DNA from: Bacilli bacterium
GTDB lineage: Bacteria > Bacillota_I > Bacilli_A > RFN20 > CAG-826
Length of the DNA stretch: 64,000 nt
Reading direction: 5' to 3'
Assembly (NCBI GenBank): GCA_045601085.1
Contig: JAZRZD010000002.1
Span: forward strand, 6,106-70,105
The notes under the pieces were generated by a model, which had not been told where the DNA came from, ran no database searches, and was given only the letters and a program-made list of their open reading frames with translations. The position numbers were made by a program, and so were the translations under genes. How positions within the stretch are numbered: position 1 is the first letter of the stretch; each line of letters starts with the position of its first letter. Shown here in pieces: positions 8,239-9,772 of this stretch.

Positions 8239-8337
8239 AATAAAATCTCCGTTAGTAATTATATTTCATTATTCATATTATTTCATTTAAATAAATATGA
8301 TTTATCAAATGTAACAATAAGATTGCCATTAAAAGTG

Positions 8338-8365
8338 TTGATAATACATATAGTTGTGATAACAT
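8338..8365 (+). promoter_or_regulatory. sigmaA-type promoter of sRNA 1
   Basis: TTGATA-N16-TAACAT with TGn extension; same pattern recurs at 8790, 8925, 9377 and 9612. Confidence 0.65.
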
Positions 8366-8368
8366 AGA

Positions 8369-8430
8369 GGTATCAAGGATCTAGGTGACCTTAAAAAGAA
8401 AGAGAGTGGGGGCAAACCACTCTCTTTTTT
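8369..8430 (+). ncRNA. Putative antitoxin sRNA 1
   Basis: Promoter, about 30 nt body, terminator AAGAGAGTGG-loop-CCACTCTCTT-T run; 5' end complementary to 3' UTR of the antisense peptide mRNA. Confidence 0.6.
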
Positions 8431-8460
8431 CATTTACATCAGGTGCCAAGGATCTAGGTT

Positions 8461-8553
8461 TTAGTATTTAATTAAAACTACTAATACAATTAACAGTACT
8501 AATATAAATACCGTTGTAGAGAGAAACTCTTTAATAAGAATCTCTCCTTTCAT
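8461..8553 (-). CDS. Putative type I toxin peptide 1 (MKGEILIKEFLSTTVFILVLLIVLVVLIKY)
   Basis: 30-aa single-TM peptide translated by hand; paralogues at 9046 and 9426 keep the C-terminal frame. Confidence 0.65.
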   Translation of the reverse strand: MKGEILIKEFLSTTVFILVLLIVLVVLIKY

Positions 8554-8557
8554 AAAT

Positions 8558-8593
8558 CTAGATTACCATGGCGCCCGGTAATCTCTTTAGCAT
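8558..8593 (-). CDS. Leader uORF (MLKRLPGAMVI)
   Basis: GGAGG RBS 7 nt before ATG; stop 4 nt before toxin ATG; equivalent uORF in unit 2. Confidence 0.45.
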   Translation of the reverse strand: MLKRLPGAMVI

Positions 8594-8820
8594 CCTTGTG
8601 CCTCCTTTTTGTAAACTATCCGAATTACTCCGGCAAAACAAAAGTTAACATATATAAAATATTTAATCAAATACCCATATAGCGTTCCATATTATAAATA
8701 ATATAGTTACTTATATATAAACTAATAATATAGTATTTATTATTTAAATATGGAAAAATTTTATTAAAAAATTATTCCATAATAAAGTATTGATAATTAT
8801 AGGATAGATGATATTATAAA

Positions 8821-8880
8821 GATGCCAAAGTGCTAGAAAAAATTAAAGAAAAGAGAGGGGTTGCAGCCACTCTCTTTTTC
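8821..8880 (+). ncRNA. Putative orphan sRNA 2
   Basis: TTGATA-N16-TATTAT promoter (8790-8817), diverged 5' seed, same terminator family, no peptide gene opposite. Confidence 0.5.
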
Positions 8881-8955
8881 ATTATCTATTAATAATTCTA
8901 GAGAGTAGCACCACTCAAAAAGTATTGATAAATGGTACCACTATGATAATATATA

Positions 8956-9016
8956 GGTATCAAGGATCTAGACAATCTAAAAAAGAAAGAGAGTGGTTGC
9001 ACCCACTCTCTTTTTT
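8956..9016 (+). ncRNA. Putative antitoxin sRNA 3
   Basis: Promoter 8925-8952, GGTATCAAGGATCTAG 5' end, shared bidirectional terminator. Confidence 0.6.
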
Positions 9017-9045
9017 CATTTACATCTGGCGTCAAGAATCTAGAC

Positions 9046-9117
9046 TTAGTATTTAACTAAGACTATTAATATAATTAACAGTATTATGATAAATGCTGTT
9101 TTAGGAAAGGAATTCAA
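9046..9117 (-). CDS. Putative type I toxin peptide 2 (TTG start; MNSFPKTAFIIILLIILIVLVKY)
   Basis: AAAGGAAGGA RBS; 1-nt insertion relative to peptide 1, so either TTG-initiated or a pseudogene. Confidence 0.5.
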   Translation of the reverse strand: MNSFPKTAFIIILLIILIVLVKY

Positions 9118-9147
9118 TAATTAAATCCTTCCTTTCGTTAGTCTAGA

Positions 9148-9180
9148 TCACCTTGACGTCAGTAGGTGACCTCTTTTCAT
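9148..9180 (-). CDS. Leader uORF (MKRGHLLTSR)
   Basis: GGAGG RBS 7 nt before ATG, same position as uORF 1. Confidence 0.45.
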   Translation of the reverse strand: MKRGHLLTSR

Positions 9181-9425
9181 TCTTGAACCTCCATCTTGTA
9201 AACTATCCGAATTGCTCCGGCAAAACAAAAGTTAACATATATAAAATATTTAATCAATTACCCATATAGAGTTCCATATTATAAATAATATAGTTACTTA
9301 TATATAAACTAATAATATAGTATTTATTATTTAAATATGGAAAAATTTTATAAAAAAAATTATTCCATATAAAATGTTGATAATACATAAAGATGTGATA
9401 ATATAAGGCTAACGAGGGGCCGGAT

Positions 9426-9497
9426 TTAATACTTAACTAAAACCACTAATATGATTAACAGTATTAATGTAAATACCGTTGTAGAGAGAAACTCCTT
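9426..9497 (-). pseudogene. Toxin peptide 3 remnant (KEFLSTTVFTLILLIILVVLVKY)
   Basis: Homologous frame but start/RBS region deleted; in-frame TAA upstream; no terminator. Confidence 0.55.
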
Positions 9498-9644
9498 ACA
9501 TTAAATCTAAATCACCTGACTAGTCACGCTGGTCCCTTTATATTCTTTAACCTCCAAATGTTAGCTATCCGGATTAATCAGGCAAAAGAAAACTTAACAG
9601 ATAATAAAACATTGGATAATAATAGTCTTGATGTTATTATAAAT

Positions 9645-9704
9645 TCATCAAAGATCTAGGTGACCTTAAAAGAAAGAGAGCAGGGATGAAATGCTCTCTT
9701 TTTT
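9645..9704 (+). ncRNA. Putative orphan sRNA 5
   Basis: TTGGAT-N17-TATTAT promoter (9612-9640), body nearly identical to sRNA 1, terminator AAGAGAGCA/TGCTCTCTT. Confidence 0.55.
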
Positions 9705-9772
9705 CATTATCTATTAATAACTTATTGCATTAAGATATTCATTTGTTATAATAATAAAGCACTCAAAAGAAT

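Follow-up and report, generated by a model that had tools for sequence, protein, structure and literature searches.

Type I toxin-antitoxin systems have been described with different arrangements of the toxin mRNA and its antitoxin RNA. In par of pAD1 (RNA I/Fst and RNA II; Enterococcus faecalis), repeats undergo transcription in opposing directions over a bidirectional terminator and cover the toxin Shine-Dalgarno (SD) sequence and start codon (PMC7472228). [quoted passage not shown] Here, we analyze a 64,000-nt window of the Bacilli bacterium assembly GCA_045601085.1 (contig JAZRZD010000002.1, positions 6,106 to 70,105 of the forward strand; all coordinates below are those of the window), in which the region between gltX and a tRNA-Gly gene probably represents an array of type I toxin-antitoxin-like modules that was inserted between these two genes and amplified in place. 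By analogy, the working of this array would come closest to a par-type layout to which mRNA locking as in hok and, as in RatA/SR4, a target at the mRNA 3' end have been added.

The gltX start (gltX on the minus strand, 6577-8238) and tRNA-Gly(GCC) (9773-9846) are separated by 1,534 nt, and all open reading frames (ORFs) in this gap comprise ≤45 amino acids; a first-pass annotation of the same DNA had described positions 8330-9710 as a region with no long ORF, and the largest ORF found is indeed one of 45 amino acids. The inventory of the region consists of two intact units, one decayed unit, and two orphan small RNA (sRNA) genes. The host, an uncultured herbivore-gut bacterium with a reduced genome, belongs to the Bacilli; its assembly comprises 0.79 Mb, with 75% completeness and 32% G+C, and the closest GltX matches (72% identity) were found in rumen and horse 'Bacilli bacterium' metagenome-assembled genomes.

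On the plus strand, a promoter scan and alignment recovered all five aligned promoters that had been proposed previously; these are mutually alignable, with TTGATA (TGGATA once), a 16-nt spacer, and a TG-extended -10 element, and start at 8338, 8790, 8925, 9377, and 9613. As the promoter of the neighboring tRNA-Gly gene (TTGCAT, 17 nt, TGTTATAAT) has the same architecture, the array promoters can be regarded as being of this organism's ordinary housekeeping type. Behind four of the five, a tail of ~25 nt leads into a G+C-containing hairpin of 13-14 bp that has a T-run (8396-8430, 8849-8878, 8983-9016, and 9669-9705, plus strand), which gives four predicted RNAs of ~60 nt, here designated sRNA1, sRNA2, sRNA3, and sRNA5, in agreement with the four terminated transcript units of the first-pass annotation; ends of these RNAs, as well as of the mRNAs discussed below, were placed according to promoter and T-run positions. 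The fifth unit, with a promoter at 9377, ends ~30 nt in and has no terminator. Overall, seven terminator-like sites were observed in the array, versus 0.6 ± 0.7 in shuffled sequences.

The candidate antitoxin of unit 1, sRNA1 (~62 nt; 8370-8431, plus strand), would be transcribed from a promoter at 8338-8365 (TTGATA, 16 nt, TG-extended TAACAT), which aligns with the other four; it is predicted to have a single-stranded 5' tail (8370-8395) followed by the terminator hairpin (8396-8430), with a 14-bp stem (inverted repeat I11) and a fold of -23.8 kcal/mol. The candidate antitoxin of unit 2 is sRNA3 (8925-9017, plus strand, including a promoter at 8925-8952; RNA ~8957-9017). With regard to the two orphans, sRNA2 (8790-8881, plus strand; promoter 8790-8817, RNA ~8822-8881) is not followed by a toxin gene, and a search across the assembly for a close site complementary to its seed, CCAAAGTGCTAGAA, found none; sRNA5 (9613-9707, plus strand; promoter 9613-9640, RNA ~9645-9707) is located directly upstream of the tRNA-Gly promoter and has a tail that is almost identical to that of sRNA1. 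Counting these orphans, sRNA (candidate antitoxin) genes outnumber toxin genes in the array.

Facing the sRNA genes on the minus strand, each candidate toxin gene has its own promoter (TTGATT, 17 nt, TGtTAACTT); for unit 1, this promoter was read from the sequence at 8670-8665, with the -10 hexamer at 8647-8642. Toxin mRNA 1 is predicted to be ~247 nt long (8390-8636) and to end in a minus-strand terminator at 8427-8399, and toxin mRNA 2 (~248 nt; 8976-9223) holds leader ORF 2 and candidate toxin 2. For units 1 and 2, both strands score as a terminator, so that these hairpins can be considered bidirectional; the earlier description of three antisense genes that converge on shared bidirectional terminators therefore applies to units 1 and 2, and not to unit 3, in which the terminator has been lost.

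Candidate toxin 1 (MKGEILIKEFLSTTVFILVLLIVLVVLIKY; 8461-8553, minus strand) comprises 30 amino acids if read from an ATG, or 24 amino acids if read from an ATT at 8535, which is located 8 nt behind the GGAG of an SD sequence; it contains 14 consecutive NUN codons and shows a GRAVY hydropathy score of 1.83 over its whole length and of 3.43 over the 16 residues before the terminal KY. Candidate toxin 2 (MNSFPKTAFIIILLIILIVLVKY; 9046-9117, minus strand) comprises 23 amino acids and has a TTG start 8-9 nt after GGAAGG. In unit 3, a toxin remnant (KEFLSTTVFTLILLIILVVLVKY; 9426-9497, minus strand) retains 23 in-frame codons that end in VKY and lacks a start and SD sequence, both of which were removed by a 16-nt deletion according to the alignment; among the three antisense genes for peptides of 23-30 amino acids that had been reported, two are thus intact and KY-ended, and the third is a pseudogene. 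All three copies have retained the frame, length, and KY-stop, with 13-14 consecutive NUN codons, while the flanking segments carry indels; differences among the copies, as read from the alignment, are mostly I/L/V exchanges or synonymous, and the GRAVY score of the 16 residues before KY ranges from 3.1 to 3.4. These data suggest one-helix membrane peptides, even though the coding signal falls short of proof.

Both intact units also carry a short leader ORF, with a strong SD sequence, upstream of the toxin ORF. Leader ORF 1 (MLKRLPGAMVI*; 8558-8593, minus strand) has an SD sequence, AAAGGAGG, 7 nt upstream of its AUG; leader ORF 2 (MKRGHLLTSR*; 9148-9180, minus strand) ends in TGA, which is a stop codon in this genome. 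A reading of TGA as Trp was ruled out, as 28 of 418 long frames terminate in TGA and only 12 frames are gained if it is treated as a sense codon. SD sequence, AUG, length (10-11 codons), and place of termination of the leader ORF are maintained between units 1 and 2, whereas the peptide sequence and frame differ. The distance from the end of the leader ORF to the toxin start is 4 nt in unit 1 and 30 nt in unit 2, and the two ORFs do not overlap.

Structure predictions for the two toxin mRNAs yielded minimum free energies of -78.9 kcal/mol (mRNA 1; z -5.80) and -72.8 kcal/mol (mRNA 2; z -5.11), with none of 200 dinucleotide shuffles as good in either case. Both mRNAs share a predicted architecture that consists of a 5'-terminal hairpin, a long-range helix, a leader-ORF hairpin, a toxin-SD hairpin, and the terminator. 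In the long-range helix, the segment of the 3' untranslated region (UTR) that directly follows the toxin stop pairs with the leader-ORF SD/AUG as well as with the leader-ORF stop region (alignment columns 21-45 and 78-84 with 179-207); this helix includes 4 compensatory pairs and is found in the minimum free energy and centroid structures of both mRNAs. For mRNA 1, the fold-back segment is located at 8430-8460 (minus strand) and would have two sets of partners, i.e., 8616-8592 and ~8561-8555 in cis, and the sRNA1 tail in trans. In addition, the toxin SD sequence is predicted, in both intact units, to pair with toxin codons 2-5 in a local hairpin (alignment columns 92-101 with 110-119), in which 9 pairs include 3 compensatory ones and 3 that changed on one side. 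While units 1 and 2 are only ~70% identical, 76 of 76 consensus pairs form in both, and the compensatory pairs (8 in total) are distributed over the long-range helix (3), its extension (1), the SD hairpin (3), and the leader-ORF hairpin (1); controls in which the partners were slid by 1-3 columns gave 0-2 compensatory pairs. In these models, the toxin mRNA thus appears to be silenced by its own fold and to be doubly locked, in a manner supported by covariation.

The sRNA and the toxin mRNA of a unit are predicted to pair at two sites. At their 3' ends, the two RNAs overlap perfectly over a predicted 42 nt, based on the placement of their ends, which corresponds to the entire bidirectional terminator. 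A second site is provided by a direct repeat of 13-14 nt that has a copy on each side of the terminator and thereby makes the sRNA tail complementary to the mRNA segment just past the toxin stop. In unit 1, copy 1 (CAAGGATCTAGGTG; 8374-8387, plus strand) is located in the sRNA1 tail and copy 2 (CAAGGATCTAGGTT; 8447-8460, plus strand) corresponds, on the minus-strand mRNA, to the 3'-UTR target right after the stop; in unit 2, the repeat copies are located at 8961-8974 and 9033-9046 (plus strand). Duplexes between tail and 3' UTR have predicted energies of -24.4 kcal/mol for sRNA1 with mRNA 1 (z -5.1; 0 of 200 shuffles as good) and -22.7 kcal/mol for sRNA3 with mRNA 2 (z -5.7); the only cross pair scored at this site, sRNA3 on mRNA 1, was weaker (-19.8 kcal/mol). 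Cofolding of full RNAs similarly gave ΔΔG values of -34.5 and -35.4 kcal/mol for the cognate pairs, as compared to -9 to -17 kcal/mol for non-cognate pairs. The paired bases covary by unit (CUAGGU/ACCUAG in unit 1 and CUAGAC/GUCUAG in unit 2); that both repeat copies were altered together, to CTAGGT in unit 1 and to CTAGAC in unit 2, argues for selection on pairing. When the 0.79-Mb assembly was searched with the repeat 14-mer (≤2 mismatches), non-coding matches were found in the array only, with one further match located inside a coding region. As a separate observation, AGGUGACCUU of sRNA1 (8379-8393) and of sRNA5 (9654-9668) is complementary over 10-11 nt to mRNA 2 at 9163-9174, which forms the 5' arm of the leader-ORF hairpin (duplexes of -21.5 and -21.6 kcal/mol, z about -3); this match may reflect cross-regulation between units or may be a by-product of shared motifs.

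This arrangement resembles par/Fst with regard to the convergent promoters that share one bidirectional intrinsic terminator, the complementary hairpins of which are the first contact site in par, the direct repeats that are transcribed in opposite directions to create a second complementary site, the intramolecular stem-loop over the toxin SD sequence (predicted computationally here), the ~60-nt antitoxin, and the small hydrophobic peptide (PMC7472228). Unlike in par/Fst, the mRNA copy of the repeat (8447-8460 and 9033-9046 in units 1 and 2, respectively) is located in the 3' UTR past the stop codon rather than over the SD sequence and start codon, and the array mRNA adds a leader ORF and a 5'-3' fold-back. 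The peptides also differ from Fst; the Fst signature is absent, with no P/D/S/TxxxG (PxxxG-type) motif, as the first-pass annotation had noted for APxxxG, no conserved Trp, and no charged C-terminal tail (criteria from PMC7472228). The peptides instead end in LIKY and LVKY directly past a helix that contains no Gly, and were not placed in Fst/Ldr because this signature failed. Two further features were considered and rejected: a par-like pairing of the sRNA with the toxin start, which covers 14 of 16 positions by hand in unit 1, is absent in unit 2 and is significant in neither, and a conserved U-turn (YUNR) in the terminator loop is not supported, as mRNA 1 has UUUG and mRNA 2 has none (by reading).

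Searches for relatives of the array were carried out at the RNA, peptide, and DNA level. With Rfam at permissive thresholds, tRNA-Gly was the only match above cut-off; RatA reached 22.9 bits against a cut-off of 49, and sraA and others scored far below theirs. Pfam, NCBIfam, and PHROGs contained no family for the peptides, and phmmer with the 30-amino-acid ORF against 1.84 billion representatives gave 0 matches, in a test that is insensitive at such a length. In its own genome, the unit is confined to the array as judged by BLAST, other matches being short and AT-rich, including one on contig C26 inside a coding region. A DNA search of 60 relatives gave no match, and in a peptide search of 150 genomes of the family, all matches were weak and can be attributed to chance because they lie inside longer ORFs (gyrB-like, rpoC-like, and others) or are interrupted by stops. 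Similarly, a 23-base leader pattern had no match in collections of genome and metagenome contigs, blastn, nhmmer, and tblastn detected no array at 160 gltX loci drawn from genomes as well as metagenomes, where GltX identity was 70-72% at best, blastn against phage and plasmid collections gave no match, and pattern scans of IMG/VR gave one chance match, in a giant-virus bin. Two KY-ending matches at these gltX loci (L144 and L181) were dismissed as they are located inside ORFs of 275 and 581 amino acids, respectively. A covariance model of the 5' half of the mRNA (model R1), run against 300 genomes of the family, yielded only matches with E-values of 0.09-1; among the best eight of these, which were checked, six fall within ORFs and the remaining two lack a comparable peptide gene in their vicinity. 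The earlier suggestion of a new family is consistent with every one of these searches, as none matched; we regard the modules as credible candidates for such a family among type I toxin-antitoxin systems, with an unusual control design and with evidence that is all computational and that comes from two paralogues in one genome.

If the type I reading is correct, an intact unit would produce an mRNA of ~250 nt for a single-helix membrane peptide of 23-24 (30) amino acids, the presumed toxin, and a convergent sRNA of ~60 nt, the presumed antitoxin. The 3'-UTR segment past the stop would fold back onto the leader-ORF SD/AUG and a local hairpin would cover the toxin SD sequence, such that the mRNA would be silent; as in hok/mok, toxin translation would presumably depend on the leader ORF being translated or on the 3' segment being lost. 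The sRNA would meet the mRNA at two sites, through the 42-nt terminator overlap and through its 5' tail on the 3'-UTR segment, and the resulting 3'-end duplex may lead to cleavage by RNase III and 3'-to-5' decay, as in txpA/RatA and, in part, bsrG/SR4, so that the toxin would stay off for as long as the sRNA is made. A gene for RNase III (rnc) is present in the window at ~62833-63480 (minus strand; G000:C2:68938-69585; TIGR02191, 218.6 bits, above cut-off), and its presence in a reduced genome is relevant to any model of duplex-dependent decay. The array is like txpA/RatA and bsrG/SR4 in the 3'-end overlap of convergent genes, in an antitoxin without complementarity to the toxin ribosome binding site, and in a likely role of RNase III-dependent decay or of a structural change at a distance (PMC4147584); it differs in that the overlap is ~42 nt plus a 13-14-nt repeat rather than 75-120 nt (PMC4147584), and in that the peptides are unrelated and comprise 23-24 rather than 38-59 amino acids.

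A number of points weigh against the type I reading. What is said of transcript ends, translation, and toxicity is inferred; toxin 1 has an ambiguous start, since its ATG has no SD sequence and the position behind the SD sequence is an ATT; no more than two paralogous sequences underlie the covariation, and they also served to derive the structure; and, as no homologue was found in the collections searched, support from conservation is confined to the array. Moreover, when the 3' segment was removed, the match between the cognate sRNA and the toxin start region was not significant (z -1.5 and -0.6 for the two units), and binding of the sRNA tail is predicted to free the leader-ORF SD/AUG rather than to hide it, such that, without induced decay, the sRNA would resemble an activator. 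Opening of the sRNA target strand costs ~15 kcal/mol, and the exchange is still net favorable (-5.6 and -7.7 kcal/mol). On these thermodynamics, the sRNA hides no ribosome binding site, and an antitoxin role would thus need cleavage or decay of the 3' duplex; this decay step, or alternatively a protection of the mRNA from activating 3' trimming, is inferred and represents the weakest link of the explanation.

The favorable release of the leader-ORF SD/AUG in both units, together with the non-significant match to the toxin start region and the fact that the peptides fall in no toxin family and are only presumed to be toxic, would also fit real pairs of an sRNA and a small membrane protein that are not toxin-antitoxin modules, in which a benign peptide (e.g., a transporter regulator) would be controlled by an sRNA that acts as an anti-fold-back activator. 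We consider such pairs fairly unlikely, as convergence, a shared terminator, repeats, a double lock, and a multi-copy array are hallmarks of type I systems, and as surplus orphan sRNAs and decay of peptide genes are also typical of type I loci (PMC7472228; PMC4147584); in addition, such heavy silencing of an mRNA would be unusual for a benign protein, and a perfect 42-nt duplex is a natural substrate for RNase III, the gene for which is present.

A different interpretation would discard the peptides altogether and explain the sRNAs as trans-acting regulators or terminator-bearing repeats, with incidental small ORFs in an array of decaying repeat DNA. ORFs of 23-30 amino acids do arise easily by chance in AT-rich DNA, one copy is dead, two sRNAs have no partner, and conservation was not detected outside the array. 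Nevertheless, this interpretation appears unlikely given that frame, length, NUN run, and KY-stop have been kept in three copies despite flanking indels, that an SD sequence precedes the start by 8-9 nt and the hairpin hiding it carries three compensatory changes, and that the sRNA seeds find no further match in non-coding parts of the genome. A reading as type I toxin-antitoxin-like modules, which was also that of the first-pass annotation, is the best fit to the convergent genes with their own promoters, the bidirectional terminators, the complementary repeats, the sequestered SD sequence, and the hydrophobic helix, and is backed by the structural covariation as well as by the unit-specific covariation between sRNA and target; the original description needs to be modified in that only two peptide genes are intact and in that the complementary repeat is located in the mRNA 3' UTR, unlike in par/Fst.

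Within the type I reading, a more specific and tentative proposal is that the antitoxin is a mimic of the 5' strand of the toxin mRNA and that the 3'-UTR segment serves as a three-way hub, which would be either locked in cis or paired in trans with the sRNA; we regard this as possible, although doubtful. A CAAGGAU...CUAG motif is common to the sRNA tail and the mRNA 5' strand, and the leader region and the sRNA tail are of the same sense and not complementary to each other. Such a module would be a Gram-positive hybrid that combines a hok-type fold-back and leader coupling with a par-type layout, and in which the sRNA would recognize the fold-back, not a ribosome binding site; the outcome, whether decay or a block of activating 3' processing, would be decided at the 3' end. 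A similarity with hok/mok/sok is the predicted 5'-3' fold-back (tac/fbi type) over the SD sequence of an upstream frame, which is computational and based on two units (PMC9841398; PMC4147584); toxin translation may plausibly depend on that frame here as well. By contrast, the leader ORF of the array stops before the toxin ORF while mok overlaps, the sRNA converges with the mRNA at the 3' end and its complementarity is to the fold-back element rather than to the leader-ORF start, the array is found in a Gram-positive host, and the peptide is unrelated to Hok (no Pfam match).

With regard to the origin of the array, all of the 23 relatives checked have tRNA-Gly(GCC) directly upstream of gltX, and the spacer between the two genes is 81-99 nt in the seven relatives read out (loci L115-L150 and L035-L048 compared). 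This short spacing in relatives indicates that the ~1.45-kb array is a lineage-specific insertion, with an approximate extent of 8272-9719. A motif of the ancestral spacer, AATTATATTGCAT, is found at both ends of the insert (8259-8271, mutated, and 9720-9731) and could be a target-site duplication. The tandem duplication of a 587-bp unit recognized in the first-pass annotation was confirmed, with a spacing of 585-587 nt. Furthermore, the 21 nt past the sRNA5 terminator are identical to those past the sRNA2 terminator (repeat D7), and the sRNA2 flank, by reading, also holds a piece of the tRNA-Gly leader; as these flanks are shared, the duplicated block can be defined as an intact unit plus an orphan sRNA. 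Judged from its repeats, the array was amplified in place after insertion.

Divergence between units is uneven. A 207-nt block at 8591-8797, which is 91% identical to 9178-9384 (repeat D1), covers the leader of the mRNA, the promoter of the toxin gene, an imperfect AT-rich palindrome, and the -35 element of the next sRNA promoter, whereas identity between units is no more than 69-77% in the sRNA and toxin parts; conservation of this block next to diverged interacting parts would fit either divergence that limits cross-talk or local gene conversion. The palindrome (TTCCATATT...AATATGGAA; arms of ~30 nt; 8685-8757 and 9272-9344) is located between the divergent toxin and sRNA promoters and might be an operator for a shared regulator or a recombination-prone spacer. 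In the decayed unit 3 (9377-9590), the sRNA4 promoter (9377-9404, plus strand) runs directly into the toxin remnant; terminator, repeat, and most of the partner sRNA have been deleted, the leader-ORF ATG has changed to ATA, and no ORF of ≥20 amino acids is listed. The unit thus shows co-decay, with loss of the sRNA body and terminator as well as of the toxin SD/start and the leader-ORF AUG.

Since the array represents an insertion relative to all relatives checked, with a short spacer motif duplicated at both ends, a conserved AT-rich palindrome between divergent promoters, and a Rep_trans rolling-circle element 2 kb away, one could alternatively view it as what is left of a mobile element that inserted in the promoter region of tRNA-Gly/gltX, with RNAs that function in replication or copy-number control (RNA I/RNA II-like) rather than in killing. 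This appears very unlikely, as the insert contains no gene for replication, integration, or transposition, as it has no match in phage, plasmid, or viral collections, and as the antisense RNA faces a peptide gene rather than a primer or a rep leader.

Among the neighboring genes, gltX encodes a long-form GluRS (553 amino acids; 6577-8238) and is followed, after 15 nt, by a tRNA-Glu with the rare CUC anticodon (6485-6561). An integrated rolling-circle element, termed inovirus-like in the first-pass annotation, is located within positions 1-6400 of the window, 2 kb from the array; it includes a gene for a Rep_trans plus Rol_Rep_N protein (4014-5318), genes for two large proteins without a Pfam match (11-1408 and 1723-4017), and an HTH_3 repressor-like gene (6093-6368). 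Downstream of tRNA-Gly, a housekeeping operon (9878-14279, minus strand) encodes, by ascending coordinate, a NERD-domain membrane protein, a Nudix protein, a SIS-domain protein (glmS-like), a phosphoglucosamine mutase-like protein, and DAC (c-di-AMP cyclase).

If the modules are real, even a gut/rumen Bacilli lineage with a reduced genome of roughly 1 Mb gains and amplifies type I cassettes, and does so with a peptide family that is invisible to annotation pipelines. The array would also represent a natural experiment, in which two diverged paralogous units with unit-specific pairing are found beside orphan antitoxins and a decaying toxin, and which is suited to the study of cross-talk avoidance and of module death. 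The combination of a leader ORF, a 5'-3' fold-back, and an antisense RNA directed at the 3' UTR is one that has not been described for Gram-positive type I systems in the reviews consulted (PMC4147584), and would suggest that hok-like mRNA locking evolved independently. While the practical value would be modest, i.e., a new short membrane-active peptide and a portable RNA switch, the main interest lies in the possible fold-back hub mechanism and in the gain, amplification, and decay of cassettes in a minimal genome.

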